Part shown: positions 22,277 to 42,636 of the stretch, in pieces | Layout of the letters: the number at the start of each line of letters is the position of its first letter | Numbering within the stretch: position 1 is the stretch's first letter | Virus record (IMG/VR): IMGVR_UViG_3300033121_000902 | DNA: 64,000 nucleotides | Reading direction: 5' to 3' (one strand) | Source: an uncultured virus (IMG/VR IMGVR_UViG_3300033121_000902) | Taxonomy: Duplodnaviria > Heunggongvirae > Uroviricota > Caudoviricetes | Notes under the pieces: generated by a model | Database searches by the model: none | What the model was told of the DNA's origin: nothing | Seen by the model: only the letters and a program-made list of their open reading frames with translations | Translations under genes and position numbers: made by a program

Positions 22277-22735
22277 TCAATTCCGATTTTCCGAATAGTA
22301 TAACACTCCCTTTTGTGGTCCGCAAGCCACACAATAACGTAGTCCATTATACTTAGGGCGGCGATGCATATGGAATTTTTTTTGGCAACCTTGACAAGTA
22401 GCTTTCCATCTTCCCTCAGGCATTTCTATTACTTGACTATCATAACAACGTTTCGGATTTGCTCCGATACGCATACAGACTAGTTTCCATTCCCAACCGT
22501 GCCCCGCCTTGAAACCAGCAATAGCATGGGCGATTTCATGTAAGATTGTATCCTTAATATCTTCGAATTTATCCATGTTTTTTTCAACATAGAAACTACT
22601 CAAAGAAATAACTTTTTTTCGATAATTGCATAATCCGGCACGACGTTTTGCCCTATCGTACTCGAATCGCCAGTCATTAAGACCGTGCTGTTTCATTAAT
22701 TCAATAGCTACAGTAGTAATGTCATTAGTGTTCAT
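22277..22735 (-). CDS. SprT-like zinc metalloprotease with C-terminal Zn ribbon (likely start MNTND)
   Basis: RRAGLC, TILHEIAHA, GHGWEW, CQGC...CVAC; the ORF's longer 5' extension overlaps its promoter. Confidence 0.88.
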   Translation of the reverse strand: MNTNDITTVAIELMKQHGLNDWRFEYDRAKRRAGLCNYRKKVISLSSFYVEKNMDKFEDIKDTILHEIAHAIAGFKAGHGWEWKLVCMRIGANPKRCYDSQVIEMPEGRWKATCQGCQKKFHMHRRPKYNGLRYCVACGPQKGVLYYSENRN

Positions 22736-22873
22736 GATTAAATTATAACAGGTTAACGCCAGGAAGCAAGGGGAGAATGGAAATTTGTTTTGTGCGGGAA
22801 TGGTATGGCGTTGGCCCGCCCGCTTGCGTTTCAAACATCTGTCAAACGGATTTCTTTGGGCGAGACAAATTGT

Positions 22874-23401
22874 TCAGTCTCCATCATGTAAATACGTCTG
22901 CAAAAATGAATCTACTAGCTTATATAGTTCAATTACTTTATCTACGGCTAGCTGCTTGATTAACCGTCGATGAATTACCATATCGGTATTTACGCAATGA
23001 TGCCAAGGATTGCCTAACATACTTAACTTAATAGGTTGTTCAGCGACCAACTTATCAAAATGTTCCGCTCTTTCTTTCTCAATATTATATCTAACTTGCT
23101 CAGCATTTTTCTTAGCCTTGCATTGTTCTATATATATAACTCTATCATTAATAGCTTTGATAATTTTATCGTATAGTTTAGTCTTCCAATCATAGCCTGA
23201 TAGAGCCATCCATGATACATGTTGGTCTTTTAGATTGCAAGTTATATTAACTTGTTTGCACGTATCACTATCTCGGTCGTAGTAACTTCGTCCACGCTTG
23301 TTTAAGCCTATACCATTAGGCAAAGCTTTATCAATTTGTTTAACGCAACCAATCGTTGGTTGTTCGGGCAGACTATCAATAAGTTCTTTAAGCGTAGCCA
23401 T
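22874..23401 (-). CDS. hypothetical protein
   Basis: 175-aa ORF in operon with 23403..23591. Confidence 0.55.
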   Translation of the reverse strand: MATLKELIDSLPEQPTIGCVKQIDKALPNGIGLNKRGRSYYDRDSDTCKQVNITCNLKDQHVSWMALSGYDWKTKLYDKIIKAINDRVIYIEQCKAKKNAEQVRYNIEKERAEHFDKLVAEQPIKLSMLGNPWHHCVNTDMVIHRRLIKQLAVDKVIELYKLVDSFLQTYLHDGD

Positions 23402-23683
23402 GTTAGCCCACTTTCATTGTAAGATTGAGCATGCGTGCAGTATTAACCAAGTATTCTACTTGTTTTCTGTTAATGCTATTTACTGATGAGACTACATTAC
23501 CTTGCGGGCAGATAAGGTAGTACCATTTTTCGTTCTCACCGTGAATTTTGGGTTGCACTTTGTACATTTCTTTCGATTCCACATTTTCCATAGTTGTTAC
23601 CTCCTTTCGTCACATTATAACAGAAAGCTTCGCTTTCGCAAGGCCAGAATTTAGTTTTTCTTAGCGTTCCGCCCCCCGCTACG

Positions 23684-23730
23684 AAAAAATCCCTAGCTCC
23701 ACAGTTAGGAAGCTAGGGACTTTTTACTTT
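23684..23730. terminator. probable bidirectional terminator after DUF932 gene
   Basis: TCCCTAGCT...AGCTAGGGA stem flanked by A-run and T-run. Confidence 0.7.
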
Positions 23731-23732
23731 TA

Positions 23733-24788
23733 TTATACGGCCAACATTTCCAAAGCAACCTTTAAAGCTTTGCTGTTCAAAGCTTGATTTTGACCAAACC
23801 ACAGCGAATTCATTCGGGTATCGTTATTGTGACCTTTCCGGTAATTGATGTACTCATTCACAGCATTGTAAAGGGTCCATAGAGAACCGCGAGTAGAAAG
23901 GATATTGCTTCCGAGACCACTTTCAAAATTTTTCGTGACTTCTTCAATAGTACACTTTTGATTTTCTTTTTCGTGAGTTAGTGCTAGTTGCACCATTTCG
24001 CGAGCCATACCGGTATGTGACTCATGAATATCACAAATTTCACCGATAATGTTTTTGGAACGTGTGCTAATCTTGCTGTCGTCTTCTTCAAAATCAAAGA
24101 CTAGCTTGACGTATCGCTTCAAGTCGCTGAAATTAACATTCTTATTCGCGAGAAGGCGGTATTGTTCAGCCGTCGCCTCAAATTGTTGGTCCGCAATGTT
24201 GATGATATCGCGAATCTTTTCAAGATTGAATTCGACTTCCTTAGTATGACGAACGCGAATCAATTCGCTAGCCTTATCCTTATGGGCAAGAGCAAGCGTA
24301 TTCGCACAGACTACGCGAATCGGAGTGAAGCCGACACGCACGGCAGTCGTGCCATCATGACTATTGCTGAGCAATACGAACTTGACGATTTCATCATCCT
24401 TGCCGACTACGATATTCGGACGATTGATTTTCGCCAGTACCCAAACCTTTCGTCCTTCCGCTAGACTACCAGCAGTCTCGAAAGAAGCTTCTTTCGCAGC
24501 CATGAATGGAGCGAAGAAATCGAAAGCAAACTTATTTTGCAAAGGATGTGTATTCGGTCCAACAATACCCAAGACTTTCTTATTATCCGAGCGTCGGAAA
24601 ACCTTACCGAAATCAGCAAGCGAAGCACCATCTGACGGACACTGAGGAATCTCTTCTTCCACAGTCCAATCAAGACCGGCATCGACAATCGCTTGTGCCG
24701 GACTATCAGGAGCTTCCGTAAGGACTTTGCCCAGACCATGCCAAGGAGTTTCCTTAACCGAGAACATGCTTTCAACTTGATGAGCCAT
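23733..24788 (-). CDS. DUF932 (TIGR03299-like) phage/plasmid protein
   Basis: MAHQVESMFSVKETPWHGLG, AGLDWTV, FETAGSL..GRKVW, NSHDGT, TPIRVVCANTL, W..YNAV.EY. Confidence 0.92.
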   Translation of the reverse strand: MAHQVESMFSVKETPWHGLGKVLTEAPDSPAQAIVDAGLDWTVEEEIPQCPSDGASLADFGKVFRRSDNKKVLGIVGPNTHPLQNKFAFDFFAPFMAAKEASFETAGSLAEGRKVWVLAKINRPNIVVGKDDEIVKFVLLSNSHDGTTAVRVGFTPIRVVCANTLALAHKDKASELIRVRHTKEVEFNLEKIRDIINIADQQFEATAEQYRLLANKNVNFSDLKRYVKLVFDFEEDDSKISTRSKNIIGEICDIHESHTGMAREMVQLALTHEKENQKCTIEEVTKNFESGLGSNILSTRGSLWTLYNAVNEYINYRKGHNNDTRMNSLWFGQNQALNSKALKVALEMLAV

Positions 24789-25157
24789 TGTAGTTTCCTT
24801 TTCACTAGGGTTATGTGTTGGTCACTTCTATACTCAAATTATAACACGTTTCGCATGGATTGCAATAGCTACGTAAGGAAAAAAGAAGGGAATTTTTTGG
24901 GCGGGGCGGGAATCGCTAACAAATTTTTTGCAATAATTCTTTACCGTGAATAACTTCTTGCAGTTCTGTTAAGGTATATTCTCCGCGAGGTTTACGTAGA
25001 ATTCCTGGTTTACTACGATTATATGCAGTCCCATATTGAGTAGCATATGAGCCATCATCATACATAACATATATGATATGATTAGTATATAATGCTGATG
25101 CTGGCGAAACTTCACAAAAGATAGTTTCTCTTTCGTAATGTTGTACATGAATACTAC

Positions 25158-25547
25158 TCATTTTGTCACCATAAAACCAATTTCGGAACTATACCAAAAC
25201 TTGGAACATCCAAGTTCACGCAAAATACTATGGCAGCATTTACATGGTTTACTCATGCGGCAATCACCGCTTCTCGTTAACCTTATATTGATAGCCTCAA
25301 AAGGTTTTTTGCCTAGTAAACCTTTAGCTTTTTTATAAGCTTCAATTTCCGCGTGCATCTTAGGACACGCTACGCGAGAATGATAACCAAAATGCTTTTT
25401 AGGTTCTTGACTAGTATTCGTGCCCCATTCGACTATACGATTATCTTGCACGATAAAAGTATAATGCAAATAGAACTTATATTGAGCGTGTTTCTCAATA
25501 TGGTCGATTGCGGTCTTCAGAGCGTGATGAATGAGCGATTTCTTCAT
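25158..25547 (-). CDS. zinc-dependent cytidine/nucleotide deaminase-fold protein
   Basis: HAE and SKPCKCC motifs. Confidence 0.8.
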   Translation of the reverse strand: MKKSLIHHALKTAIDHIEKHAQYKFYLHYTFIVQDNRIVEWGTNTSQEPKKHFGYHSRVACPKMHAEIEAYKKAKGLLGKKPFEAINIRLTRSGDCRMSKPCKCCHSILRELGCSKFWYSSEIGFMVTK

Positions 25548-26046
25548 GACTTACATATTATAGCATGAACTACGTTCATAAGCAATAGAGAAAAAGATTT
25601 TTTAGCGTGTGGCCTACCGGCCTACACTAAAGATAGGTCATGAAGATTGTATAAAAACACTAAGCTTTTTGCATGAAAGTCATAATTTCCAACTGGTGTT
25701 TCTACAGTTATTAATTGTTCCGAATTATATTTTCCGTCAATAACTTTCCCGTAAGAATTTTCCCAAGCTATTTCAGCTTTCTTTGCCGCTCTATTAGAAA
25801 TAGAAACAGTATCTCCATTTTTCAGTTCGTAGCCGTGACGGTCTTTCATATTGTTCTCCTTGTTGGGTTTATTATAGCAGGTGCTTGCTAGCATGTCAAC
25901 GGGCAATCGGAGAAAATTGGCAAAGACAAGGCGAGTTCCGCCCCGCTACTTCCGATGACGTTTCTTTGTCCTATGCTTATTACTTACCTTTGGAATAGGT
26001 AAAAGAATTGGTAAAACACCTAGTACAATTGCTGATGAAAAAATTT

Positions 26047-26238
26047 TCATTGTTTCCTCTTATGTTCACCGCACCACATATCTAACGATACTTTAGGCCA
26101 AGCGTGTCTAAGGTCGCCATTGTCTTTCATTACTGGAGTTGGCGGATTACGTCTGCATATACCTTCGAAAGGATTTTCAAAATCCTTATGTCTAGTAAAA
26201 TATATACAGTTTTCACATCTTTCTATTTCTTCGTCCAT
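26047..26238 (-). CDS. small Cys-rich phage protein
   Basis: CENC...CRRNPP...WP.V...WCGEH. Confidence 0.6.
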   Translation of the reverse strand: MDEEIERCENCIYFTRHKDFENPFEGICRRNPPTPVMKDNGDLRHAWPKVSLDMWCGEHKRKQ

Positions 26239-26841
26239 GTCTTATCCACCTTTACTCGTTTCTTAGTGATTTTTCGCAAAGCTTTCGCCATCATATTCAT
26301 CATGAAAAAAGCTTCTTCTCTCTTGCCAGTAGAATAGCCAAATTGGAATGATTGTACTCCAATTGTTAGCGTAGGTTTACGTTCCCTCGCTGTTTCGGCT
26401 CCTCTTTTTTCAAGATGAATTTTAATCATTTTATTCCTTGTATTGATAGAAAAACTTTTTTCCAAATTTCTCTACATAAAACCCTTTCTCATCAAAGGAA
26501 AGAACAGTTTTGCCCGCTTCACAACCAATAGGAACAAAAGCTTCACCGCCATGATTAGCAGAGAAGAACCATAGACCATTATTCGCGAAGCGGAGAAAAG
26601 TTCGGGCGTCACCGCAAAAATCAATGCGTGGCTTCTCTGCTAAGTATTTCAGGAGTTCGTCTAAATTTGTTGGTTTTTTCATACCCATTTTTCTATTTCC
26701 TTCTTTAGGTCGCGTTTAACTTCAACTATCCAAGAATCTAGTTCTACTATTTTTTGGTATAGAGAATACCATTCATCTAAATTACCAAATAAGTTTTTTT
26801 CTGATTATCCCAACGTCGTACACTGTAGTACATTTTCCTTT

Positions 26842-27516
26842 TCATGATTCAATAACCTCGATAGGGATTCCAGGAAATTTTTCTTCACAAAAAGATTTTC
26901 CTTTATCATAATCTTTAAAGTGACTTAAAACAATATCTTTAGTTGTATACAAAGATATAGTATCCATGTTTGCCGTTTTATGTTTGAAAATTTTAATCTT
27001 GTCAATTTCAACCGAACAAGTAGGAGTCGGCCCATTTTCGCGGTGAACCAAATCGTAAAGGTTAAGATGATGGAAAGTTTTCGCTAGTGGATTATACCAG
27101 AAATTTCCCATACAGAAAGAGCAATAAACTAATTTCCTTTTCTCGTCGTATTTTAATTCCCCAACGCCTTCTTCGTCTCCTATGTTTCTGCTTACTAAAT
27201 AATATTCTTGGTTCGTTAATTTATAGTGATGAATAATATCTTCTGCTTCATATACGGTTTCTCGTCCTACATAATCCCAACATCGTTTAGTAGATACTTC
27301 CCTAAAATATTTTCCTCTCTTGTCTTCTAAAAGAAACATTTTTTCATCTTTATAATAGTCGCCATGAGACTTGACTAAGTAAACATTACCAACTTTTAAC
27401 TCAGAATGATTTAAAGGCTTAGCCATGATAGACCTTTCAGAGGGAACTTTCCGTGGAAAGTAGTCGCTACGAAAATCATTGATAATTGGTTTTTGTGTCA
27501 GTGTGACTGTCCACAT
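26842..27516 (-). CDS. hypothetical protein (possible internal start MAKPL)
   Basis: 224-aa ORF. Confidence 0.5.
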   Translation of the reverse strand: MWTVTLTQKPIINDFRSDYFPRKVPSERSIMAKPLNHSELKVGNVYLVKSHGDYYKDEKMFLLEDKRGKYFREVSTKRCWDYVGRETVYEAEDIIHHYKLTNQEYYLVSRNIGDEEGVGELKYDEKRKLVYCSFCMGNFWYNPLAKTFHHLNLYDLVHRENGPTPTCSVEIDKIKIFKHKTANMDTISLYTTKDIVLSHFKDYDKGKSFCEEKFPGIPIEVIES

Positions 27517-29222
27517 TTGCTAATCCTCGATATCGTTTGTTTGCTCGTCAGAGCTATCATACCATTTTCCAGAGCAGATATCAATACCCTTTCCGGCTTT
27601 ATCTGCCATTTCAGCACGTTGACTATACAGCTTAATGCGACGTTCGCGAGCTTCCGGGGTATCTTGCTTCGCCAGCGTAGTCGCTTGACGCAGCACGTTC
27701 CCAAAATCACTAGGAATTCGACGTTCGCCCAAAGCAAAGTTTTTCTTTTTCATGTTCGTTGCTCCATTTGTTATACTAACAATATAACCGAAACGGGGAA
27801 GCGTGTCAACAGATTTTCTAGCGAAAATCGAAAATAGTTGGGCGGGCGGCTATCCGCTAATTCCTCTTCCTTTCCAGGCGATATTTGGATATTCGCCGAT
27901 TTTTTCCAAGGTTTCGGTATAGATTCGTTCGCCGTACTCGTTAATACGTCGAAGATGAATAAATAACCTTGATTCAATTCCTCCGTTGCGAATGAGATTA
28001 CGGTACGCATTATCCGCTTGAATCAACGTATCGTAAGACTCTACATCTTGCGACCATTTTTGGAAAACATATACGATAACATACTTACTGTACATTGCGA
28101 TTCTCGCTGTTAAAATGGTCAAAAATCTTTTTAGCGGTTTCTGGAGAAATACCACAAGCGAATTTGTTAGAAATAGCAATCTGAATATTATAAGGAGAAG
28201 AAAAATCTTCTTTTTTCAGACGCTCCTCAATTTCATGCCAAGTGAGATACATCATACTATTTCCATGCAAAAGTTTGTCATTTTTGTAGACAACGCAGTA
28301 CCAAACAAATCCCAAAGATAGTTGCATTCTTCGGCGATAACTTGGATTCCCCACGCAACATGTTCAGGAATGTTAAACGTCATATCGCCTTTTTCGGTCC
28401 ATTTTTCTAATTCTTCTGTGCATTCAGCAAGTAGACTAGCTAATTCGTGACCGTGCGAATAGCGATGACCAACAAAGTCGATAGCTTGACGTTCGGAATA
28501 AGTGAGGGTGAGTTGATACATGATTCGCTCCGTGTCGTGTGTTGTTCTATGCTAGTATTCTACTATATTTCACTACGCGAATCAAGAGGAAAAAAGAATT
28601 TTTCTTGGCGGGTCGCTCTCCGCTATTCAAACCTGAAAGAAATATTATGGATTTTCATATAACCAGCGATAAACATACGCTGTTGAAAATCGGTAGCATT
28701 TGGGCAACAACGCCGAAAATCTTCCAAATGACCTTTGATATCATTAAGTTTGCAAATCATTTGCGAGATAGGCATATCTCCGCTCTTAACAAAAGATTGG
28801 CAATGTCCTTGTTTGATGTTAGAACCGCCGTAAACGCCATCATCTTTTTCGTTCATGATTCACCTTTGGTTGAACTAGATTGGGAGTGATGTTGATAATA
28901 GAATTATAGCACGCTTTGCGTGTGAAATCAATAGGAAAAGTACGCTTTTTAGCGGTTCGCCGCCCGCTTGCTATCCTAGTCGGACGCAAGCAGAGCGGTT
29001 AGGGAGTGACATTACATATAAGGCATATCATCATCGCCGTTTACGCTTTGGTCACTTTCCCAATCATCTTGGTCATTATTGTTAGCTAACGGAACATCGT
29101 CCATAGGTAAAATCAATCCCGCTTGTTCACCCGTTAGCCCTTCGCCGCAACAATCGCAGCAATCATCATCATCAAGAACACGTAGTTCGCCGCACTCTTT
29201 GCATTTACCACGATTACCCATG

Positions 29223-29573
29223 TTAGATTTCCTTGTTACAGATTTTACGGATATATTTTTCAACCAATTCTTTTGCTACTCGCAAGTCAATAATACCTAA
29301 GCGTTGACGAACGTCTTTGACTACGCGAACCTTAGTATCAGACAAAGCATACCCCTGCCCATCAACTTTAGGATTACCGCTTTTAAGCGTTTGAATTTCC
29401 GCGTAGGTTAGTTCGCCCACCATTTGGTTATTTTGTTCAACGAACTTGTTAAGTATTTTTAAAGAAATTTTTTCGAAAGCTTCCACCGTCTCAGGCAAAT
29501 CGTATTGAACGTAAGCATCACCCATAGCAACAATAGTTTTGCAAACGTCGATAATCTTTTGTGCGACCAGCAT
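29223..29573 (-). CDS. protein with C-terminal ribosomal bL12 (L7/L12) CTD-like domain
   Basis: KVRVVKDVRQRLGIIDLRVAKELVE parallels the bL12 CTD consensus K(I/V)xVIKxVRxxTGLGLKEAKDLVE; directly downstream of tRNA-Glu. Confidence 0.65.
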   Translation of the reverse strand: MLVAQKIIDVCKTIVAMGDAYVQYDLPETVEAFEKISLKILNKFVEQNNQMVGELTYAEIQTLKSGNPKVDGQGYALSDTKVRVVKDVRQRLGIIDLRVAKELVEKYIRKICNKEI

Positions 29574-29609
29574 AGTAGAAATCCTTAGCAAAGAGGGTTG
29601 TGACTAAAT

Positions 29610-29682
29610 TACCACGGACGAGAATCGAACTCGTATCTTCGGATTGAGAATCCGATGTTCTGAACCGTTGAACCACCGTGGC
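29610..29682 (-). tRNA. tRNA-Glu(CUC)
   Basis: GCCACGG/CCGTGGT acceptor, anticodon arm TCGGA-TTCTCAA-TCCGA, own promoter at ~29695-29722. Confidence 0.92.
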
Positions 29683-31227
29683 GTTCATGTATGTATTATA
29701 TCATGGTCTATTAGTGAAATCAATAGCAAAAAAACTTTTTTAAGGCGTCGGCCCGCTCGCTACTGAAATACCATTACTTTTGAATTACATTCATACTTCT
29801 CATAGAAAAGCTTTTCAGCTTCCTCTTTAGTCTCACAATTGAATCTATCCTGAATATGATAGAAAATTCCAATTGCTCCGACCTTGCGAGCATTCGCACA
29901 TGATACGATGAATTCCATAGCTGGTTTATCCAATGAGTTCGATGTGATAGCTACGCAAATTGTTGGGCCATCCTGAAACATTACAGTATTCTATCCCTTC
30001 TACAAATTCAGATTGTCCGATGAATGTTACAATACCTTCAGCTGTTTGTACATTTTTACATGTGACATAGTTAAAAGAAACTTTGTCTCCGAGTTTCACA
30101 GGTGAACCGTTGCGGTCTTTCATGATTTAACTCCTTGTTAATCTATATTAGATTGTAGCATTGATAAGCAAGGAAGTCAATGGGAAAATTTATTTTTAAG
30201 CGGTTACCCGCTCGCTATACCACTTCTTTCCAAAAATTCACAATAATGAATTGTACTTTGATTGGTTTATTCTTGTATATAATAAAATGCTCTCCATTCA
30301 TTCTATATACTGTACCTTCATATTTTTCATGCTCTCTGTTGATAAGGAAGACACATTCATCAACATGTTGAACATCGTATTTTTCCAATAGTTCGCGTGC
30401 TGATTCAGGCATGTTTTTTATCCTTATCAAAAAAACTTTTTACATCATTAAATTCTTGCGAGTCCTTAATAGTAAACACAGCATGCAAATCATTGGCTTC
30501 ATCAATTCTTTTCAATAAAGCCTCAACAGCAGCAGGAAGTTCAGCCTCAGTAATAACCTTCCTATAAGCCCCGCAAGCCCAACATTTGTATTTGTTGGAA
30601 ATGTTGTAGCCTTGAACGTCGAACTTCAGGCCGCAATTTTTGCAAATCATTTTCCATACCCTTCCTTGCTAAGCGTTTGTTTTTTCAAACGTCGAAGTCT
30701 ACGCCTAGCTTTTGATTTCATTTTTCTGGGTGAGCAGTTATATGGGTTACAGCATTGGCAATGCCAACCACCACAACCTCCATCAAGTTTTGGGATACAA
30801 AAATAATCTTTTTTCAGTGACATATTAGCCCCTTCCGCCGATTCGAACGGCATTTCCCGGAGAATATTACTTCCGGTCGGGTTCCCACTCCCATGAGTCG
30901 GGTTATGTACTAACATTATAGCCTAACGGACTAACGAAAGCAATAGTAAAAAAAGATTTTTTAGCGTTTGCCGCCTCGCTAAGTTTTTAAACAAGCAGTA
31001 AGGCAAATCATAAACAGGAAAAGTAAAACTCCGCATACAGCGTCAGGATTAAATCCGTTCACTATAATTTTGCAGGTGAGTACTAATCCAACAAAAACAG
31101 TGCATAGGAAAAAGAAAATGCGGAATAACCAAATCATATTATATCTCCTTGTTAGGTACATTATAAACGGTTTGCGTTGTGAAGTCAATAGGAAAATCTT
31201 TTTTTGTGGCGTTTAGCCACTCGCTAT

Positions 31228-31515
31228 AAAAACGAAGCGACGACCAAAAAGGCCCGAAGGCATCATTCTTGGTCGTCTTCGTCTAGTTCAGCTTGCAGAG
31301 AAGCGTCAACACTAGTATACATAGTGGGCATATATTAGTGTATACTACTTGCCCAAGGCAGTATACAGATAATGGATAGTTTGTCAATACCCTCGCGGCG
31401 TTGTTTGCCCTACTTCTGGTCGTACCCTGGTACGCACAGAGCATAGTTCAACTCGTTTCGCTTTAGGAGCGACCTTTGGGTAACTAGTTCGCTGTCATTA
31501 TCATCAGCGTTGACT
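31228..31515 (-). ncRNA. candidate ~290-nt structured non-coding RNA
   Basis: Own promoter TTGCAT-N16-TATAAT (31548-31521), 10-bp closing stem, internal hairpins, terminal hairpin with TTCG loop plus T5; no RBS-led ORF seen. Confidence 0.55.
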
Positions 31516-31916
31516 TATGTATTATAGCAGACTTACGCTTAAATGCAATAGAAAAAAGCTTTTTTTCTTAGCGTGCCGCTCCACTCTCACCTATATAACT
31601 TTTCCTCATAGAATATAGGGACGCCTGAACCGGACTCTTCCATGTTGGATTTTTGGCGTTGAGCAACGATGGCCTTCCTTGCTAATTCTGTTGCTCTCTT
31701 TGGTGACCGATGCAAAACTTTTGCTCGGAAAGAAAAGTATTTTCCGTTTGGATTGCAAAATGGGCCATAAGCGTCAAGAATTTCGCAAGTGAAGTATGTT
31801 TTCATATTAATATGATAGACGATTAGCTCTGACTTGTCAATAGTAGCTTGCTAGAATTATTGATATTGGCGTTTGCCCGCCCGCCACGCGGCAGCGGATT
31901 GGATAGGGAAATACTT

Positions 31917-32132
31917 TTACCAATCGCAATCATCATGGAACATACCATAATCTTCATCAGTTCCCCAACCAGCCGACGCAAGCGTGTCAGCATCAGCCTC
32001 AACATCAGACATATGGTCTTCAAATTCCAAATCCTCATAGATAGGGAATTCATCTTGTTCGTCAAGCTCAAGCTCAAGACGAACGTCATTACCTTCAGTG
32101 TACGCATCTTCAGGACCGTAGAAATCTTCCAT
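31917..32132 (-). CDS. highly acidic small protein (possible DNA mimic)
   Basis: 27 of 71 residues D/E, one R, no K; LASAGWGTDEDYG motif; RBS AAGGAG and own promoter. Confidence 0.7.
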   Translation of the reverse strand: MEDFYGPEDAYTEGNDVRLELELDEQDEFPIYEDLEFEDHMSDVEADADTLASAGWGTDEDYGMFHDDCDW

Positions 32133-32261
32133 AGCAATCTCCTTGTTATACTATCATTATAGACTTGTAGTCTACTATAGTCAAGAGATTTAATTGAATT
32201 TTTATTGGTAAGGCGTTTGCCCGCCCGCTACTGCACGATTGTACAGTAGCAGCGTAGCCGC

Positions 32262-32528
32262 TTAGTTAGCGTGGCAGCTTAGGCTGATAGGTTCAAATGC
32301 GTACTTCTCGCCGAGTTGCCAAGAAAGAATTTCCAGCATATCATCAATCTCACCTTGATTGTGAAGCTGGATAACTTGGCGATGATGAGGATTCTTGAAT
32401 AGGGAAGCAACGTCAGTATGTTCCTCGTTAGTGTTTCCACCTACGAACATCGACATGTGAGTAGCCCGATGCGTAGCTTCAATGACGACGGGGAAGATGT
32501 AGCTACCGATTTCCTTTTGCATGACCAA
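32262..32528 (-). CDS. hypothetical early protein
   Basis: RBS GGAG, own promoter, ends at an extended repeat. Confidence 0.6.
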   Translation of the reverse strand: MVMQKEIGSYIFPVVIEATHRATHMSMFVGGNTNEEHTDVASLFKNPHHRQVIQLHNQGEIDDMLEILSWQLGEKYAFEPISLSCHAN

Positions 32529-32699
32529 TCTCCATACGTTGTTGTGTGTTATCTACTACTATTGTAGGCTAATCTCTCTCACATGTCAATCCCTTTTATG
32601 CAAGAATCTCGCAATTTCTTTTGGCATAGCGTTTGCCCGCTCGCTAGTGTACAGGTGTGTAGTAGCACACCCATACACGTAGCGTAGCCACACAACACA

Positions 32700-32915
32700 C
32701 TACACACTACCCCAACCCATAGGGATAACGCTCGGAGGACCAGCGATATACGCAGTATTGAATTGTCGATGCTCGTTATCACGATACGCATCGCGTCCAA
32801 TCAGCATCGTCTTACCATTCTTCGCTTTCGTCACCTTCTCAACAGCAACGCGGCGAACCTCACCCTTGTAGCCGAACTCGATAACCTGATTAATGAATTG
32901 CTCGTACATGTTCAT
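32700..32915 (-). CDS. stand-alone WYL-like small protein
   Basis: IEFGYKGEVRRV...LIGRD..RDNEHRQF....I. Confidence 0.55.
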   Translation of the reverse strand: MNMYEQFINQVIEFGYKGEVRRVAVEKVTKAKNGKTMLIGRDAYRDNEHRQFNTAYIAGPPSVIPMGWGSV

Positions 32916-33364
32916 TCTCCTTAGTGTTGTGTGTTGCTCTTGCTTACACTATCATTATAGCATGGAGTACCACGCATGTCAACTAGTCTAGTAGATTTTC
33001 TTCGAAAATCTTTTGGTATGGCGTTTGCCGCCCCGCTAGGCGTTAAAGTCAATGATTTTCTGAAGAATATCGCGAATTTCTCCTAGTTTTTTATTAGCTT
33101 CTTTTTCTCTCATCGAATCGCTTACAGCGACCACGCAACAGTACGATGTATCGTTTGCTACGCCATTATCATGATATACATTGATATTTTGGCAAGCTTC
33201 ACGCAGGGCACGAATTTCTTCTTTGTTCAACAACATAGCAAGCTCCTTTTGTTATACTCTCATTATAGACTTGTAGTCTAGTAGAGTCAAGAGGAAAATG
33301 CGAATTTTTATTGGCATGGCGTTTGCCCGCTCGCTATACAGTTGTACAGGAGCGGCGTAGCCGC

Positions 33365-33517
33365 TTAGTTAACACCCCAAACCGGACCCTGAATCTTCGA
33401 TTTCGTGAAGGATTTGTGTTGCCCGTTTTCGATGCACAACAGATACGAACCACGGTCCTGAACCAGTTCGACAATGCGGGTTTTGCCGTTGTAGGTGAAA
33501 GTGATGTTCTTGTTCAT
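33365..33517 (-). CDS. stand-alone WYL/Sm-like microprotein (start MNKNIT)
   Basis: ITFTYNGKTRIVE...YLLC...HKSFTKSKI, RBS AAGGAG. Confidence 0.5.
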   Translation of the reverse strand: MNKNITFTYNGKTRIVELVQDRGSYLLCIENGQHKSFTKSKIQGPVWGVN

Positions 33518-33641
33518 GTTCGACTCCTTAGTGTGTGTGATGTTCTGTACTCTTATATAATAGCATCTGGAATTCATAAGTCAAGGACTTTACCAAAAAA
33601 ATGTGAGATTTTTATTGGCACGGCGTTTGCCCGCCCGCTGT

Positions 33642-33716
33642 TCAAGCGTTCAGTAGTTCATTGTACTTATCAATAGCGATGTTGATTACGATGAAACCGA
33701 TGATGAAGTAAGCCAT
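33642..33716 (-). CDS. 24-aa hydrophobic micro-ORF
   Basis: GGAG RBS, MAYFIIGFIVINIAIDKYNELLNA, own promoter, ends beside the repeat. Confidence 0.45.
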   Translation of the reverse strand: MAYFIIGFIVINIAIDKYNELLNA

Positions 33717-33818
33717 ACGAACTCCGTTGTGATGTTGACATATACATTGTAGGTTAACTCGTTAGTGAAGTCAATAGAGAATATTTATTTTTTATTGGCA
33801 CGGCGTTTGCCCCGCCGC

Positions 33819-33989
33819 TTAGGTATTTACACATACGTCATAAGCTGTGTAGCCAGTGATGCTTAGCATCGGAACGAGGTATTGGAAGAAAGAGAAATCG
33901 AGTCCATGCACGCAGATGACGCAACCGCAAAGGAATACGACGAACAGGAAGAGGATGACCAGCCAAGCACGCATGAGGAAGAGAACCAT
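33819..33989 (-). CDS. 56-aa membrane microprotein
   Basis: AAGGAG RBS then MVLFLMRAWLVILFLFVVFLCGCV...; TAA abuts the repeat. Preferred over the ORF-track frame 33838..34050. Confidence 0.6.
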   Translation of the reverse strand: MVLFLMRAWLVILFLFVVFLCGCVICVHGLDFSFFQYLVPMLSITGYTAYDVCVNT

Positions 33990-35263
33990 TAGCTAACTCC
34001 TTTGTGATGTTGTATATATACAGTATAGAGTGCAAGCTAGCTAATGTCAAGCTGAATTGGTAAAAAAAGAAAAGAATTTTTTGGCACAGCGTTTGCCCAC
34101 ACGCTAATATAGACAGGGGTGGGGTTTTTTTGTTTGCTTGGTGAATGTGCGGCGGCAGTCTAGAAAATGCAGGGGGTTCAAAAACAACAAGCGGCGATTA
34201 CGCCGTAGTATCACTCAATGCAATAAGGTAAAAACAACAAGGAGGCTTTGCCTCCAAGTATTACCTAATCTACTCCGGGAAAGTAAATGGCGAAGCCTTA
34301 GTTGTTTAATCTCCCAAGCAGTTCTGCTAGAGACGTAGTATACAAATAGACATAACTCATTCTAGTTTTCATCGCTACAATAACACACGGTTTATTATCT
34401 TTTATGCCGTTCATGGCATAACTTACATACTTTCTATTAATCATAACGTCTTCGACTTTAATATATAAAGGCTTCGCCATTTTAATAACTCCTGAAAAGA
34501 ATTCTTTTATATTCAATTTCTACTTTGTTACATACAGGAAATTTAACTAAATCTTTCGGTAATTCATCGTGACATACCGCTCCCCATGCCACTTTACCAT
34601 CTTTATAAAACACATTTCCAGTTATTCTAATTTTACTCATATTTAAAACTCCTAAAAAATTTCTTCGTCATGACGATTATCAAAAAATCCCGGTCCAGTT
34701 TTCCACGCTAATCTACACAAATAAAACCACACTAACAAGTACACCCACCAATATTGTTCAAAAATCCGCAACAATACACAAGATAACATTTCAACCTCTT
34801 GATAAAAAAAATTTTTTGGAGTATTATTATAGTGTATCGTCCCAAAACGGATGGTCAAGCGGAGAAGTAAAATCATCGGAAAGGTCTTGAGCAAATTCAC
34901 TCACAGCTTTATTGTGTTCCTTAAAATCTTTCTTTTTTCTAGAAGGCTTTTTTTTCTTTTTCATTTTCCCGAAGATTTCCTTTCTCAATTCATAAATTGT
35001 CAACTGATTATTGGGTAGGCGAAGGGAGTTTAGCCCTTCAAGAATTTTGAGCAGAGAAGTGCCCCTTCCTTGCTCATCTATTATAAATTTTTTTTCTTTG
35101 AGAGAAATTATCATGGCTGATTGTAATAAGAAAAATGAAACTGACACTCTGTACAAATTATACACGACAGAAGGTGAGCAGTCAAGAGCAAGAACCGAAA
35201 AAGATTTAAAAAAAGAAGACGTATCAAAAGAAGAAGGTTTAAAACTAATTAGGGAAGCGTTAA

Positions 35264-35884
35264 ATGAACATACCTGTGGGAAAAACGGAAGCGGAAGTTG
35301 TAGAGACAATACAGAGAATAACGAAGAAGATAGCAAAGAAATTTAAGTTTGGATATCATACAAACGCGGATATGGAACAACAAGCTTTTATATACGGAAT
35401 GAAAGCTCTTGATAAATATGACACATCTAGACCTTTGCCTAATTTCTTATATCGTCACATTCTTAATAGATTGATTAACTTTAAAAGAGATAACTTTAAA
35501 AGAACAGATTGTCCATGTATATTATGCCATAATAAAGAGAGTGGTTCTACTGGACATGAAGATAAACAGTATTGCAAAAGTTTTATTAAGTGGCGAGACA
35601 GAAACTATAATAAGATGAGCGTTATTGTTCCTTTTAATATAACTAATATAAATGATGAAAAAGAGAAAAGAACTAGAATCAATTCGTCTGCTCTTATTGA
35701 TATTCAAATTGAAGAACTATTAGAGAAGATAGACCGCGATTTACCAGTCGAGCTACGTTCCTTTTATCTACAGATGAGACAAAAGATAAGCGGAATTCCT
35801 AAAGCTAGACGAGACGAAGTAATAGAAGAATTAAAAAAAATACTAGGCGAGGATTTATGTCAGAAAGTAAAAGAGGAAGATTAA
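35264..35884 (+). CDS. phage sigma-factor-like protein (region 2-like) with Cys-rich insert
   Basis: DMEQQAFIYGMKALDKYDTSRPLPNFLYRHILNRLINFKR resembles sigma70 region 2; CPCILC insert; first clear gene of the plus-strand arm. Confidence 0.7.
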   Translation: MNIPVGKTEAEVVETIQRITKKIAKKFKFGYHTNADMEQQAFIYGMKALDKYDTSRPLPNFLYRHILNRLINFKRDNFKRTDCPCILCHNKESGSTGHEDKQYCKSFIKWRDRNYNKMSVIVPFNITNINDEKEKRTRINSSALIDIQIEELLEKIDRDLPVELRSFYLQMRQKISGIPKARRDEVIEELKKILGEDLCQKVKEED

Positions 35885-37987: not shown

Positions 37988-40880
37988 GGTAATAAAAGAT
38001 TTAACTAGTGGCGTGCCTCATGCTACTGGAGCTTGGTTTGTGTTTCATAATCAATCTGATGTAGCAGCAAGAAAAATTACTGCACCAGATTTGATTTCGT
38101 TTTTAAATGCTGGTTTTACAATAACAGTTTCCGGGGAAAATTATTTAAGCGTTTCTGGTAGCGAAATAACAGTTGAGCCTGTTGACCTTTCTAATTCTAA
38201 TGTAACTGGTATACTAGCAGCTTCTCATTTTCCATCTTTAACTGGAGATGTTACTACATCTTCGGGTAGCGTTGCTACAACAATTGCTAACGATGCTGTC
38301 ACTTTAGCTAAGATTCAAAATATAGCTACTGCTTCATTTTTAGGACGTAATACTGCTGGCACTGGCGACCCAGAAGTATTAAGTATATCTACCGTACAGA
38401 GTATGTTAAGTCTATCTGGTACTAACACTGGTGACCAGATAATCACACTAACAGGCGATGTAACAGGAAGCGGTAGTGGTTCTTTTGCAACAACTATAGC
38501 TAATAATGTAGTTACGTTTGCTAAAATGCAGGATATCTCAACTGCTACATTTGTTGGCAGAAATACTGCAAGTACAGGCGACCCTGAAGAGTTAAGTATA
38601 GCTACTGCTAAAACTATGTTAGGGTTGTCAGGTACAAACAATGGCGACCAATTTATAACTTTAACTGGTGATGTAACTGGTTCAGGTTCGGGTTCTTTTT
38701 CTACTACGGTTGCTAATGATGCTATTACTTTTGCTAAAATGCAAAATATAGCTGCAACTGGAGTTATCGGTAGAAAGACTGCTGGTACAGGCGACCCTGA
38801 ATTATTATCTATTGCAGATTTACAAACTATATTAAGTTTAAGCGGAAGTAATACAGGCGACCAGATAATCACATTAACAGGAGATGTTACTGGTAGTGGT
38901 AGTGGTTCGTTTGCTACTACAATAGCAAATAATGCTGTAACATTAGCTAAATTTCAAGATATTGCAACAGCTTCATTTTTAGGTAGAAATACTGCTGGCA
39001 CTGGCGACCCAGAAGTTCTTAGTATTACTACATCTAAAACAATGTTAGGTTTATCCGGTACTAACAACGGTGACCAAACTATTACTTTAACTGGAGATGT
39101 TACAGGAAGTGGTACGGGTTCATTCGCAACTACAATAGCTAATGACGCTGTAACTTTTGCAAAGATGCAGAACATAGCGGCTACAGGAGTTATTGGTAGA
39201 AAAACTGCTGGTACTGGCGACCCAGAGTTGTTAACTGTTTCTGATTTACAGTCAATTTTAAGTCTTTCTGGTACAAACAATGGCGACCAAACTATAGTTC
39301 TTACTGGTGATGTTACTGGTTCTGGTAGTGGGTCATTTGCAACTACAATTGCTAACGATGCTGTTACTTTAGCTAAGATTCAAAATATAGCTACTGCTTC
39401 ATTCATAGGAAGAAATACAGCAGGAACGGGTGACCCTGAAGTATTGGATATTGCTACAGCACAGAGTATGTTAGGGGTTTCTGGTAGTAATACTGGTGAC
39501 CAGACAATAGTTTTAACTGGAGATGTTACAGGTAGCGGTACAGGTTCTTTTGCTGCGACAATTGCTAATGATGCTGTTACGTTTGCTAAAATGCAGAATA
39601 TAACTGCTACAGGTTTTATTGGTAGAAATACAGCAGGTACAGGAGACCCTGAATTACTTTCAATAGCTACAACAAAATCTATTTTAGGATTGTCAGGCAC
39701 AAATAATGGAGACCAGACAATCACATTAACTGGAGATGTGAGTGGAACTGGTAGCGGTTCTTTTGCTGCAACTATAGCTAATGACGCTGTAACTTTTGCA
39801 AAAATGCAAAATATTTCTACATCTACATTTATTGGTAGAAGTACAGCAAGTACGGGCGACCCTGAAGAACTAAGCGTAACTACAGCTAAATCATTATTGA
39901 ATTTATCAGGAACAAATACAGGCGACCAAACTTTAAATAGTTTATTACCTAGCCAAACTGGTAATTCTGGAAATTTCTTAAAAACCGATGGAACTAATAC
40001 GAGTTGGGCGGCTACTGGTGGAACTTCTACAGCACCATATACTGTTTGTGATGGTAGATTAACTTTAGCTTCTGGTACAGGAGTACCAACTTCAGATGTT
40101 AGTGGTAGCACTATATATTTTACTCCATATAATGGAAATTATATTGGTTTATACAGCGGTTCTTCATGGTCTGTATTAACATTTAGTCAAACAGGAATTA
40201 CTTTAACCGGTTTATCAACGAGCGGTGTTTATGATGTGTTTGGTTATAATAACGCAGGTTCTTTATCTTTAGAATTATCAAGCGGTTGGACTTTAGGAAG
40301 CGGAACTGGTCAATCAAGAGCCGAACCTTTAACATTACAAGATGCAATTTTAGTTAAAAGTGGTTCTCCTTCTCGTAGATATTTAGGAACATTTTTAGCT
40401 TTAAATTCTACAACTACTATTGATTCTGCAAGACAAAGATTATTATGGAATAATTATAATCGTGTGCATAGAACGATGAATGTTATAGAAACAACAGATA
40501 GTTGGACATATAGCACAAACTCTTATCGTAGAGCAAACGCTAGTGCTAATAATCAATTAGAAGTTATTTGCGGAGTTGTTGTTGGCACAATGAGCGTATC
40601 GGTATTTGGACAATCTTTATGTACAGGTAATAACTATAGGTCTTTAGGTATAGGCGTTGACAGTATAACTACGTCTGCTACTAACGCTATTAGAGGTAAA
40701 GATTATGGAGTTAGTGCTTCCAGCATTCCAACTACTCATACAGCATTTTTAACGGAACAAACAGCTTTGGGTTATCATATATATGTATGGTTGGAATTAG
40801 GAAATACTACCACTACTTGGTATGGCGATAACGGTGTAGTTTTTGACCAAAGCGGTATGACAGGAGTATGGGAATGTTAA
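37977..40880 (+). CDS. repeat-rich virion fibre protein
   Basis: 967 aa, T/G/S-rich, eight ~71-aa repeats and a C-terminal beta-rich domain. Confidence 0.75.
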   Translation: MASKVIKDLTSGVPHATGAWFVFHNQSDVAARKITAPDLISFLNAGFTITVSGENYLSVSGSEITVEPVDLSNSNVTGILAASHFPSLTGDVTTSSGSVATTIANDAVTLAKIQNIATASFLGRNTAGTGDPEVLSISTVQSMLSLSGTNTGDQIITLTGDVTGSGSGSFATTIANNVVTFAKMQDISTATFVGRNTASTGDPEELSIATAKTMLGLSGTNNGDQFITLTGDVTGSGSGSFSTTVANDAITFAKMQNIAATGVIGRKTAGTGDPELLSIADLQTILSLSGSNTGDQIITLTGDVTGSGSGSFATTIANNAVTLAKFQDIATASFLGRNTAGTGDPEVLSITTSKTMLGLSGTNNGDQTITLTGDVTGSGTGSFATTIANDAVTFAKMQNIAATGVIGRKTAGTGDPELLTVSDLQSILSLSGTNNGDQTIVLTGDVTGSGSGSFATTIANDAVTLAKIQNIATASFIGRNTAGTGDPEVLDIATAQSMLGVSGSNTGDQTIVLTGDVTGSGTGSFAATIANDAVTFAKMQNITATGFIGRNTAGTGDPELLSIATTKSILGLSGTNNGDQTITLTGDVSGTGSGSFAATIANDAVTFAKMQNISTSTFIGRSTASTGDPEELSVTTAKSLLNLSGTNTGDQTLNSLLPSQTGNSGNFLKTDGTNTSWAATGGTSTAPYTVCDGRLTLASGTGVPTSDVSGSTIYFTPYNGNYIGLYSGSSWSVLTFSQTGITLTGLSTSGVYDVFGYNNAGSLSLELSSGWTLGSGTGQSRAEPLTLQDAILVKSGSPSRRYLGTFLALNSTTTIDSARQRLLWNNYNRVHRTMNVIETTDSWTYSTNSYRRANASANNQLEVICGVVVGTMSVSVFGQSLCTGNNYRSLGIGVDSITTSATNAIRGKDYGVSASSIPTTHTAFLTEQTALGYHIYVWLELGNTTTTWYGDNGVVFDQSGMTGVWEC
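38238..39930 (+). repeat. 8 tandem ~213-nt (71-aa) coding repeats
   Basis: LTGDV units start at 38238, 38448, 38661, 38874, 39087, 39300, 39513, 39726. Confidence 0.95.
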
Positions 40881-41395
40881 GTTTATATTTATATAGCGAA
40901 ATAAGCAAATTGTGTCCTATAGATGGAATCTCTATAGGTAGAAAAAATGATAAAAATACATGGAGAATAGATTTTTCTTCTACAGCTACTTCTGAACAAA
41001 TTTTAGCAGCAAATAATTTCGTAAACAATTTTAATGTTTCTGACTATTTGTTGCTGCAAGCTAAAAAAGATAAAAATTTAAAAATAGACGAAAAAACTCA
41101 AGAAATTATATCTTTAGGTTTTCCTTACGATTCAAAAATATTTAGTTTAAGTTCAAACGCCCAAATGAACTGGACGAACATGTATATTAATAAATCTGTT
41201 TTGGCTAAACCTTTAATTATAACAACAAACGATGATGAAGCTTATCAATTAGATACAGAATTAGATATACAAAATTTTTATATGACAGGATTAATATATG
41301 TTCAAACAATAATAAATTCTGGCCGAACTTTAAAAATTAACGTTAATAATTGTTCTACTTTAGAAGAAATAGAAAATATTATAGACGAAAGGTAA
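40868..41395 (+). CDS. fibre-associated protein, DUF4376-like
   Basis: K..KI.....II..GF.Y....F......Q.N pattern, directly after the fibre gene. Confidence 0.55.
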   Translation: MGMLSLYLYSEISKLCPIDGISIGRKNDKNTWRIDFSSTATSEQILAANNFVNNFNVSDYLLLQAKKDKNLKIDEKTQEIISLGFPYDSKIFSLSSNAQMNWTNMYINKSVLAKPLIITTNDDEAYQLDTELDIQNFYMTGLIYVQTIINSGRTLKINVNNCSTLEEIENIIDER

Positions 41396-41399
41396 TATA

Positions 41400-42170
41400 A
41401 TGGCTAATAGTACAATAAAAGATTTGATTGAAGGTACTCCAGATGAAACAACTGGTTGGATTCCTTTTCATAATACTGCTGATACAGACCCTAAGAAAAT
41501 AAATCCTAGTAATTTAGCTTCATTAATAGCTTCTATTCCTTTTAATTTGCTTAGTGCTTGGAATAGCGGCACAACCTACAATTTAATGGATGTTGTTTCA
41601 CTAAATGGTTCTTCTTATATAAGTAAGACTACAAATACTAATAGTAGTCCAGACTCTAATCCTAATGATTGGTTATTATTGGCAGAAAAAGGAACCGCTG
41701 GAGCTAATGGAGAAGCTCTTGAAATTCGTAGAAATGGAATAGCTCAAACAGGAACAGGGTATCTTGAGAGTAGATTAGGTTCAGGCTCATGGGGTAATTT
41801 ATATTTACCTCTTGTTTCTGCTGGAGCATGGTCTAATACACCCGATTATACACCTGGAGATGTTGTTACGTATTTAGAAAGTTCTTATGTTTGTATTGAT
41901 TATACAAACGGTAATCATGGTGACCCGGCAAGCACTACAGGAAAATGGAGTTTGTTTGTTGCTAAAGGAAATACAGGTAATGATGGTCCTAATAATGTTA
42001 CTACATCTACAACAACTAATTTAACTGGTCCAATAGTAGGAAATGGTTCTACTCTTAATGCTGTTACTCCATTTACAGATGGGACATATACAGTTGGATT
42101 AGGAGGTTCTACCAACGGAACAATTACAATTGTAAATGGAATTATAACAAATATAACACAAGCATCTTAA
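41400..42170 (+). CDS. virion protein with two CBM5/12-like carbohydrate-binding repeats
   Basis: AWNSGTTYNLMDVVSLNGSSY and AWSNTPDYTPGDVVTYLESSY, each followed by W..[LF]..KG.xG; N-terminus similar to that of 37977..40880. Confidence 0.7.
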   Translation: MANSTIKDLIEGTPDETTGWIPFHNTADTDPKKINPSNLASLIASIPFNLLSAWNSGTTYNLMDVVSLNGSSYISKTTNTNSSPDSNPNDWLLLAEKGTAGANGEALEIRRNGIAQTGTGYLESRLGSGSWGNLYLPLVSAGAWSNTPDYTPGDVVTYLESSYVCIDYTNGNHGDPASTTGKWSLFVAKGNTGNDGPNNVTTSTTTNLTGPIVGNGSTLNAVTPFTDGTYTVGLGGSTNGTITIVNGIITNITQAS

Positions 42171-42171
42171 A

Positions 42172-42636
42172 ATGAAAATTATAAAAGATACGAGAGAACA
42201 ATTAGGTTGGAATTTTCCAGGTATGGAAGTTAAAACTTTGCATACCGGAGATTATACCATTGAAGGTTATGAAAATCTATTTGTTATAGAACGCAAAGGT
42301 AAATTGACAGAATTTGTTAATAACCTTTGCACTCAAAGATTCGAAGAAGAACTTAAAAGATTAGAAGAATTTAAATATTCCTTTATTATTTGCGAGTTTG
42401 AATATTCTGATATTTTTAAATGGCCTTTGTCTTCAGGCTTATCTCAAAATAAAGTAAAATACATTAAAACAAGTAAATATTTTGTATTAAAACGTGTTAA
42501 CGAAATATTAGTCAAGTATAAAACAAAGATAATTTTTGCAGGGAAGAATGGTGCTGACACGGCATCATCAATATTTAAAAGAGTGGTAGAAAATGAAAAC
42601 AATGTTGATGACAACGGAACAAAAAAGGATTCATGA
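42172..42636 (+). CDS. ERCC4/XPF-like nuclease
   Basis: DTREQ, GDY and IERK motifs. Confidence 0.85.
   Translation: MKIIKDTREQLGWNFPGMEVKTLHTGDYTIEGYENLFVIERKGKLTEFVNNLCTQRFEEELKRLEEFKYSFIICEFEYSDIFKWPLSSGLSQNKVKYIKTSKYFVLKRVNEILVKYKTKIIFAGKNGADTASSIFKRVVENENNVDDNGTKKDS

Follow-up and report, generated by a model that had tools for sequence, protein, structure and literature searches.

Sigma-54-type boxes set beside divergent early promoters in an uncultured tailed phage and its relatives

The 64,000-nucleotide stretch of DNA analyzed here, called the window throughout, comes from the uncultured virus record IMGVR_UViG_3300033121_000902 (IMG/VR; Caudoviricetes), and our subject is an array of seven short plus-strand repeats at 32206-34096 that resemble the promoter elements of sigma-54 RNA polymerase. 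This DNA belongs to a large tailed phage whose G+C content is about 35%. Small minus-strand genes run leftwards up to ~34.6 kb, and a plus-strand block begins at 35264 with a phage sigma factor and goes on with a sugar dehydratase, tail fibers, the large terminase, the portal and a tape-measure protein of >1966 amino acids (aa). The first large gene in this structural/late block, that of the sigma factor (35264-35884, plus strand; Sigma70_r2, 206 aa), served as the anchor for synteny with the relatives. The minus-strand genes in the 30.9-34.1 kb interval are very short, at 24-89 codons, and every one has its own Shine-Dalgarno sequence and near-consensus sigma-70-type promoter.

The seven copies share the pattern TGG(C/T)A(C/T/A)(G/A)GCGTTTGC, with the GG-N10-GC spacing exact in 7/7 and a T before each that produces a TTGG start. 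Positions, start and spacing are those that an initial annotation, made from the letters of the window, had reported, as are two exact copies of TGGCACGGCGTTTGC. Each box is embedded in a 42-nt unit that consists of a T-rich run, the box itself and a GC box, CCGC(C/T)CGCTA. From left to right on the plus strand, copy 1 (32189-32230) comprises the T-rich run, the weakest of the seven boxes, TGGTAAGGCGTTTGC (32206-32220), and the GC box CCGCCCGCTA; copy 2 (32605-32646) has the box TGGCATAGCGTTTGC (32622-32636), copy 3 (32997-33038) the box TGGTATGGCGTTTGC (33014-33028), copy 4 (33295-33336) the box TGGCATGGCGTTTGC (33312-33326), copies 5 (33599-33640) and 6 (33779-33820) the exact consensus box TGGCACGGCGTTTGC (33616-33630 and 33796-33810, respectively), and copy 7, the rightmost (34065-34106), the box TGGCACAGCGTTTGC (34082-34096), all of them followed by the GC box. 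The match to sigma-54 decays leftwards, a trend also described in the initial annotation: the three rightmost boxes begin TGGCAC and are succeeded by TGGCAT, TGGTAT, TGGCAT and TGGTAA, beyond which lie three copies without the TGGCAY half. Variation among the seven is confined to positions at which the classical TGGCAC-N5-TTGC consensus is degenerate. The stop codon of a 24-codon minus-strand open reading frame (ORF; 33642-33716) lies 2 nt past copy 5, the GC box of copy 6 overlaps the stop codon of ORF 33819-33989, and copy 7 is followed on the plus strand by a G-rich stretch and a run of seven T residues at about 34118-34135.

A search with TGGYAYRGCGTTTGC, allowing at most 2 mismatches, returned 8 matches in the window against 0.27 expected, and 0/100 shuffles reached 8; the additional match, at 22801, falls within a long ORF and departs from the pattern at one position. 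With a position weight matrix (PWM) built from the relatives alone, six of the seven copies ranked at the top of the window (18.4, 13.6, 17.7, 19.8, 19.8 and 20.4 for copies 2 to 7), the next best site scoring 9.8, and the TGGTAA copy fell below the top 16. The seven copies are not independent events, because they are paralogues of one repeat, and by our own arithmetic about a tenth of 64-kb shuffles would contain a single full match by chance (one of 30 shuffles scored 20.6). The statistical weight therefore rests on the relatives and not on the count of seven.

Opposite each box, on the minus strand, stands a sigma-70-type promoter. Promoters were scored as hexamer matches of 12 against TTGACA-N16/17-TATAAT; the scan found 23 promoter-like sites in total (11.5 expected), ten minus-strand promoters scored 10-12 of 12 within 31160-34050, and the promoters of all seven cassettes lay in that range of scores. 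Specifically, TTGACT-17-TATAAT at 32156-32184 drives ORF 31917-32132 (21 bp from box 1), TTGACA-17-TACAAT at 32561-32589 drives ORF 32262-32528 (32 bp from box 2), the TG-extended TTGACA-17-TATAAT at 32954-32982, which scores 12 of 12, drives ORF 32700-32915 (31 bp from box 3), TTGACT-17-TATAAT at 33262-33290 drives ORF 33036-33236 (21 bp from box 4), TTGACT-16-TATTAT at 33557-33584 drives ORF 33365-33577, which probably begins with the ATG at 33519 (31 bp from box 5), TTGACT-17-TACAAT at 33746-33774 drives the 24-codon ORF 33642-33716 (21 bp from box 6), and TTGACA-17-TATACT at 34022-34050 drives ORF 33819-33989 (31 bp from box 7). These cargo ORFs (31917-33989, minus strand) have 71, 88, 71, 66, 70, 24 and 56 codons, in the same order. 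The distances to the -35 boxes, put at a few tens of bp in the initial annotation, fall into two classes, 21 and 31-32 bp, separated by one turn of the helix, and the spacers are not alike in sequence. The box sits in register with the divergent sigma-70 promoter. Read along the minus strand, a cassette of ~100 bp comprises the GC box, the reversed -24/-12-type box, an A/T-rich spacer, the sigma-70 promoter, the Shine-Dalgarno sequence and a small ORFan.

Three further copies to the left lack the TGGCAY half and retain no more than the GC box, GCGTTT(A)GCC...CGC(T/C)A: GGCGTTTGCCCGCCCGCCA at 31868-31886, upstream of the promoter at 31812-31840; GGCGTTTAGCCACTCGCTA at 31208-31226, upstream of the promoter at 31160-31188; and AGCGTTTGCCGCCTCGCTA at 30963-30981, upstream of a weaker promoter, TTGCTT..TATAAT (all three copies on the plus strand). 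At its other, upstream end, the array is bounded by two intrinsic terminators, each a hairpin with a T run (34192-34255, minus strand), which are the sole canonical minus-strand terminators within 30500-35500; the scan found none between cassettes.

The relatives were gathered from IMG/VR by protein search, the portal giving hundreds of contigs at 42-57% identity and the phage sigma factor five at 39-40%. In five long records (120-231 kb; 865,976 bp in total), TGGCAY-N5-TTGC occurs at 24 sites, against 0 for the reversed pattern. They are concentrated a few kb upstream of the portal gene, in a position syntenic with the early array of the window: 8/9 lie within 39026-42754 (3.7 kb) in one record (G001) and 6/7 within 161365-166478 in another (G002), and in the other three (G003-G005) all sites are clustered upstream of the portal. 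When the spacing was varied across 85 loci (1.005 Mb), N5 gave 37 distinct sites and other spacings between N0 and N12 gave 0-7, apart from N7 with 22. The N7 enrichment (22 loci, including L001, L004, L005 and L011) was set aside as a single conserved coding stretch in a structural-region gene (..KKMNDDGWHT..LAAGVDRN..), and N5 is the sole spacing enriched outside coding sequence. At least one site was present in 14/85 loci and at least two in 10/85; most loci stop short of the early region. The initial annotation had made its reading depend beforehand on homologous repeats keeping GG-N10-GC, and that spacing holds both in the relatives and across IMG/VR. The putative -24/-12 box is conserved with strict spacing across the whole clade and beyond.

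Positions that the search pattern leaves free are also constrained. Across 48 distinct relative sites, R follows TGGCAY in 46 and a second R comes next in 42, T precedes TGGCA in 35 and TTGC in 39, and W follows TTGC in 46. The longer sigma-54 consensus carries R and W at the same places, and an older form of it reads TGGYAYR-N4-TTGCA. By their letters, then, the free positions of these putative sites follow the sigma-54 consensus. The motif that Escherichia coli holoenzyme selects on its own in systematic evolution of ligands by exponential enrichment is TGGCACnnTTnTTGC (PMC8743547).

The arrangement around the boxes recurs as well. A spacer of 31-33 bp is found again in relatives, and in loci oriented by the portal 29/36 relative sites share the orientation seen in the window, the remaining seven being mostly partners in paired sites. 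One locus, L059, has the same anatomy as the window, with small minus-strand genes, promoters and plus-strand sites adjoining a sigma-factor homologue. In three other loci (L079, L081 and L083), two sites stand head to head as TGGCAC-N5-TTGC, a gap of 4-5 bp, and GCAA-N5-GTGCCA. This double pattern was found in at least 125 IMG/VR stretches, whereas a reversed control and an N6-spaced double were found in 1 each. Among the matches listed (127 distinct), the variable N5 arms are complementary at 0-2 of 5 positions in 112/127, which is the chance level, so the double sites are not hairpins; this points to two boxes recognized by a protein and not by a fold. In the half-site logo pooled from the same matches (254 halves), a purine follows TGGCAY in 247 and A/T follows TTGC in 211. 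Sigma-70-like promoters in their 246 flanks point away from the double in 28 cases and towards it in 8, with neither in most flanks.

Two further repeats were noticed near the relatives' sites. In L059 (521-590, 1565-1670 and 2464-2590), L063, L065 and L078, tandem sigma-54-type boxes are followed by one to three palindromes, CTGCCATTTTGGCAG, separated by G+C-rich spacers such as CCGCGGCCCGCC, where the window has the GC box alone. The second, the inverted repeat TTGTCAAGAGATTTTGACAA, is found in L080 (~1350), L081 (~1375 and ~4000), L083 (~640) and L079 (~630) at a distance of ~38 bp from the sigma-54-type box, where it overlaps the -35 box of the divergent early promoter and resembles the operator of a dimeric regulator.

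Among bacterial sigma factors, sigma-54 alone forms a holoenzyme that settles stably on promoters yet stays silent until an ATPase activator acts. We put at about 0.5 the probability that the boxes are selected binding sites for host sigma-54 RNA polymerase, acting by occupancy or by activator-gated antisense transcription. The permutation of the cassettes in a related strain, described below, is in keeping with this reading. That sigma-54 holoenzyme binds the boxes is, in our view, more likely than not. Given binding, occupancy alone and activator-gated antisense transcription would be roughly equally likely; we favor regulatory occupancy beside the early promoter, with activator-gated antisense transcription a near-equal alternative, and a titration role is possible on top of either function. 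Under occupancy, host sigma-54 holoenzyme would bind each box as a poised closed complex, back to back and in helical register with the early promoter, and the box would act mainly through this poised polymerase, which would share or contest the A/T-rich upstream region used by the sigma-70 polymerase and would mark the boundary of the cassette. With the geometry of textbook footprints, a 31-bp gap would set two polymerases back to back across the A/T-rich spacer, and a 21-bp gap would bring the sigma-54 complex into the region bound by the alpha subunits of the sigma-70 enzyme. Under activator gating, a host enhancer-binding activator would fire the box, and antisense transcription would start ~12 nt beyond the GC and run into the preceding gene at its 3' end; because the start falls at or beside the stop codon of that gene in copies 5 and 6, the product would be antisense to it. 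Fired boxes would then be a host-state-dependent brake on the early genes.

Several observations weigh against sigma-54 polymerase as the occupant of these sites, or at least against particular functions for it. First, an enhancer-binding protein (PF00158) was absent from the window's 30 largest ORFs (at least 120 aa; smaller ORFs were covered within 28-35 kb) and from four of the five relative genomes, and the weak AAA+ match in the fifth (E 8e-4) belongs to a family that also matched 14/14 control genomes. An activator may be supplied by the host. Activators of this kind typically bind ~80-150 bp upstream of the promoter; no enhancer-like sequence common to the cassettes was found beyond the cassette itself, and no window site has a sense-strand gene downstream, only the antisense of early genes. 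Second, the 11 nt that would have to be melted are G+C at 6-9 of 11 positions in the window, against a mean of 4.4/11 in relatives. Third, in three relatives a plus-strand terminator hairpin, CCCCA..TGGGG with a T run (L059 3440-3470, L065 ~2085, L078 ~1465), starts 10-15 nt past the rightmost site, so the rightmost copy there has nothing to transcribe. The same terminator could equally stop plus-strand transcripts that come from other sites, and the hairpin of the relatives, like the G-rich stretch and T run past copy 7, may be where plus-strand (antisense) transcription through the array stops. Fourth, a head-to-head pair 4-5 bp apart leaves no room for two holoenzymes, and a multimeric protein of another kind would give the same arrangement. 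Fifth, at two loci whose sigma factor is 39% identical, there are no sites in the 3 kb upstream of that gene, and the feature is therefore not universal in the wider group. Sixth, because three copies have kept the GC box without the -24 half, part of the conservation of the repeat has another cause. Finally, in E. coli, a bound sigma-54 holoenzyme was no roadblock and left the expression of the genes in which it sits undiminished, and at intergenic sites the data fit competition with other sigma factors (PMC4591121).

What the initial annotation proposed thus survives in part. The sigma-54-type identity of the boxes is upheld by the spacing and consensus in relatives and across IMG/VR; among the functions suggested (sequestration, a roadblock or insulator, activator-dependent antisense RNA), none is singled out. 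A roadblock runs contrary to the E. coli evidence in PMC4591121, and activator-dependent antisense RNA is left with neither an activator gene (large ORFs of the window, five relatives) nor a shared enhancer found. The annotation did not recognize the boxes as components of promoter cassettes that shuffle, nor the adjoining GC box that persists where the sigma-54 half is gone.

A broader version of the occupancy idea, which we offer only tentatively and hold to be somewhat unlikely, is that many tailed phages, not only those of this clade, park host sigma-54 polymerase in their early-gene architecture without any activator, as orientation-defined boundary or tuning elements and as a sink that drains the small sigma-54 pool of the cell. 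Single sites would then lie back to back with early promoters, head-to-head doubles would mark cassette boundaries, and the replicating genome would draw down the pool and so silence sigma-54-dependent stress and defense responses.

The rival explanation that fares best, although we consider it improbable, is that the box is an operator of another DNA-binding protein, either a phage protein, such as an early-promoter regulator or shut-off factor, or a host factor, and that its likeness to a sigma-54 site is coincidence or mimicry. Such a protein would read the TGGCA and TTGC half-sites one helical turn apart, and TGGCA and TTGCw are indeed direct repeats 11 bp apart. TGGCA palindromes of the kind noted above adjoin the sites of relatives, sometimes three in a row, doubles 4-5 bp apart are easier to reconcile with a multimeric protein than with two polymerases, a fixed register of 21/31 bp to the -35 box is the pattern of a classical upstream activator or repressor site, and no sigma-54 activator gene was found (large ORFs of the window, five relatives). 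However, this protein would have to copy ~13 positions of the sigma-54 consensus, including R at -20/-19 and W at -11, with a strict N5, in many seemingly unrelated viral contigs of widely differing G+C. No candidate for it has emerged, and a Sigma54_DBD-like domain is encoded in 0/5 relatives.

More doubtful still is the proposal that the repeat is a promoter-plus-homology module, with an UP-like context and shuffling identity, in which the sigma-54-like box is a passenger. It draws on the paralogy of the copies, of which 1 and 4 share 85% identity over 88 nt, and on the behavior of the cassettes in a related strain. When contigs from four public runs were placed on 30800-35300, one run (X4) proved to hold a strain 90-99% alike, in which gene 31917-32132 is fused to the leader and promoter of 32700-32915 (joint 32137 to 32916, 7 shared letters), block 32269-33049 comes after the element at 33312 (joint 33353 to 32269), and the place of the element at 33796 is taken by a copy similar to the 33312 element (converted copy at 33776/33816). 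These joints, from the contigs of one metagenome only, fall in or beside the regulatory module, and the cassettes are units of exchange between related strains. An integron-like, site-specific mode of recombination was considered and set aside, as the joints lie in the 5' leader or beside the element at no fixed position (a recombinase gene was not searched for). The cassette order differs between related strains, and the cassettes therefore behave like the shuffling promoter early stem-loop (PeSL) cassettes of T4-type phages, which are a precedent for such modules (PMC2839356; PMC4122927). Also in line with a passenger box, three cassettes with intact promoters and genes do without the -24 half. 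Against it, TGGCAY-N5-TTGC is kept amid changed surroundings in relatives whose portals are 42-57% identical, and neither the spacing specificity nor the doubles in at least 125 viral stretches would be expected of a passenger.

The weakest rival, which we regard as very improbable, is that the element acts in the minus-strand RNA and bounds the upstream early mRNA at its 3' end, be it by non-canonical termination, by processing or through a stabilizing hairpin: it does occupy the PeSL terminator slot, directly after the stop codon of the upstream gene, with no canonical terminator between cassettes and with some copies folding to -12 to -14 kcal/mol, but the copies have no common fold, their predicted folds differing from one to the next, they have no U run (an A run follows on the minus-strand side), the phage uses canonical hairpin-plus-T terminators at 34192-34255, the arms of the 127 doubles among the matches listed show no covariation, and the element has no Rfam match.

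Sites for sigma-54 and sigma-70 can overlap, as at glmY, and as at such sites two holoenzymes would contend for neighboring DNA here. Unlike them, the core elements in the window are 21-32 bp apart and divergent, and only the A/T-rich upstream region would be shared. Bacterial sigma-54 promoters resemble the phage elements in their boxes, their GG-N10-GC spacing, the T before TGGCA, the R after TGGCAY and the W after TTGC. They differ in that the phage has a repeated array, a fixed register with divergent sigma-70 promoters and, in relatives, doubles, at all of which binding is predicted from the DNA, and in that no phage activator gene was found and no enhancer near the window sites. For overlapping sites, competition or repression is mentioned in PMC4591121. 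Bacterial sigma-54 sites include the many inactive, intragenic or antisense ones mapped in E. coli, and most E. coli sites stand, as the phage boxes can, without an evident gene to transcribe; according to that study, transcriptionally inactive binding is the norm for E. coli sigma-54 holoenzyme (Bonocora et al. 2015, PMC4591121).

On the phage side, PeSLs of T4-type phages combine strong early promoters with terminator stem-loops that flank ORFans, and are shuffled as modules (Arbiol et al. 2010, PMC2839356; Comeau et al. 2014, PMC4122927). The window cassettes are alike in being short repeats with a strong sigma-70-like early promoter, in accompanying small ORFans in a variable region and in serving as exchange points, and unlike in that the PeSL stem-loop is an effective terminator, whereas the corresponding slot in the window holds the GC box and the sigma-54-type box. 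The window phage also differs from T4-type phages in its tape-measure protein of >1966 aa, its putative capsid protein without a phage relative and its portal with a single weak match.

No paper that our literature search turned up describes sigma-54 sites in arrays or pairs in the early regions of phages; the nearest case is phage YuA. Isolated cases such as this apart, we know of no report of phages using sigma-54. YuA has one sigma-54-like promoter region (a 2008 study, as cited in PMC10914365), and it is like the window phage in carrying a sigma-54-type promoter in its genome and unlike it in that this single promoter is presumed to drive genes, whereas the sites in the window form an array, point antisense and are coupled to sigma-70 promoters.

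If phages place such arrays at early-gene boundaries, early expression would be wired to the signaling state of the host, or parked polymerase would be a structural or titrating device; either outcome, if true, would be a new principle of phage-host transcription control and would supply a testable function for the numerous silent sigma-54 sites that bacterial genomics has found puzzling. Should parked complexes prove to be the answer, phages would have a regulatory element of a new class, and a DNA-bound sigma factor that does not fire would have a new use. With its small size, sharp definition and frequency in viral metagenomes (IMG/VR has at least 125 double sites), the element could mark early regions in uncultured phage genomes; because it implies an rpoN-positive host, it could also help to predict hosts.

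The exact 18-mer of the repeat had 0 matches in IMG/VR. Matches to it in Joint Genome Institute (JGI) metagenomes were discarded as unrelated, mostly bacterial contigs (110 single-match loci, median G+C 0.56, no arrays); the genes downstream of 47 of them were a mixture of solute-binding proteins, penicillin amidases and partial internal ORFs.

The cargo of the cassettes resembles little else. A Pfam scan assigned no family to any of 18/18 cargo ORFs, and tblastn found no match in the relatives' loci for 17/18, the sole match covering 17 residues (E 8e-4). Weak PHROGs matches were obtained for 3/19 small ORFs, two of them to families of unknown function; the third, ORF 30405-30650, lies outside the seven-site array and matches both an unknown-function and an integrase family (E ~9e-4 each). 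The 71-aa early protein of ORF 31917-32132 (minus strand), whose sole match is a weak one to a PHROG of unknown function, is extremely rich in Asp and Glu, a composition that suggests a DNA mimic or an anti-restriction protein. In a wastewater metatranscriptome (X20), 151-nt contigs match 33964-34114, which spans the promoter at 34022-34050 and box 7, and 34379-34529; strand and ends are not readable from them, and carry-over of DNA is possible.

A near-identical phage is absent from INPHARED, the portal protein has a single weak match there, and the putative capsid protein has zero matches in INPHARED and IMG/VR; near-identical DNA occurs in runs from river, wastewater and sludge. For the phage GDP-mannose 4,6-dehydratase, identity to genes from Acidobacteriota, Bacillota, Bacteroidota and other phyla does not exceed 56%, and the protein gives no clue to the host. 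As for the phage sigma factor, a copy of the T4-type late promoter TATAAATA after the terminator of the capsid gene prompted a motif count for its target promoters, and the candidate was rejected as not enriched (7 found against 10.1 expected). The sigma-factor homologue in L059 (4055-4672) is served by a separate sigma-70-type promoter that diverges from the early array. The large terminase (42593-45763, plus strand; 1056 aa) also matches helicase and endonuclease PHROG families, its tblastn matches fall on intein-containing helicases, and it probably carries an intein or a homing endonuclease insert. In the leftward block, an AAA_5 ATPase and a VWA-domain protein, a MoxR/CobS-CobT-like pair, are encoded at 8185-9345 and 1-726 (both minus strand). 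Seven tRNA genes (Arg, Leu, Ile, Thr, Pro, Asn and Glu) are dispersed over 13561-29682 (minus strand), and an HNH endonuclease ORF (14082-14624) overlaps the tRNA-Leu gene at 14053-14135.

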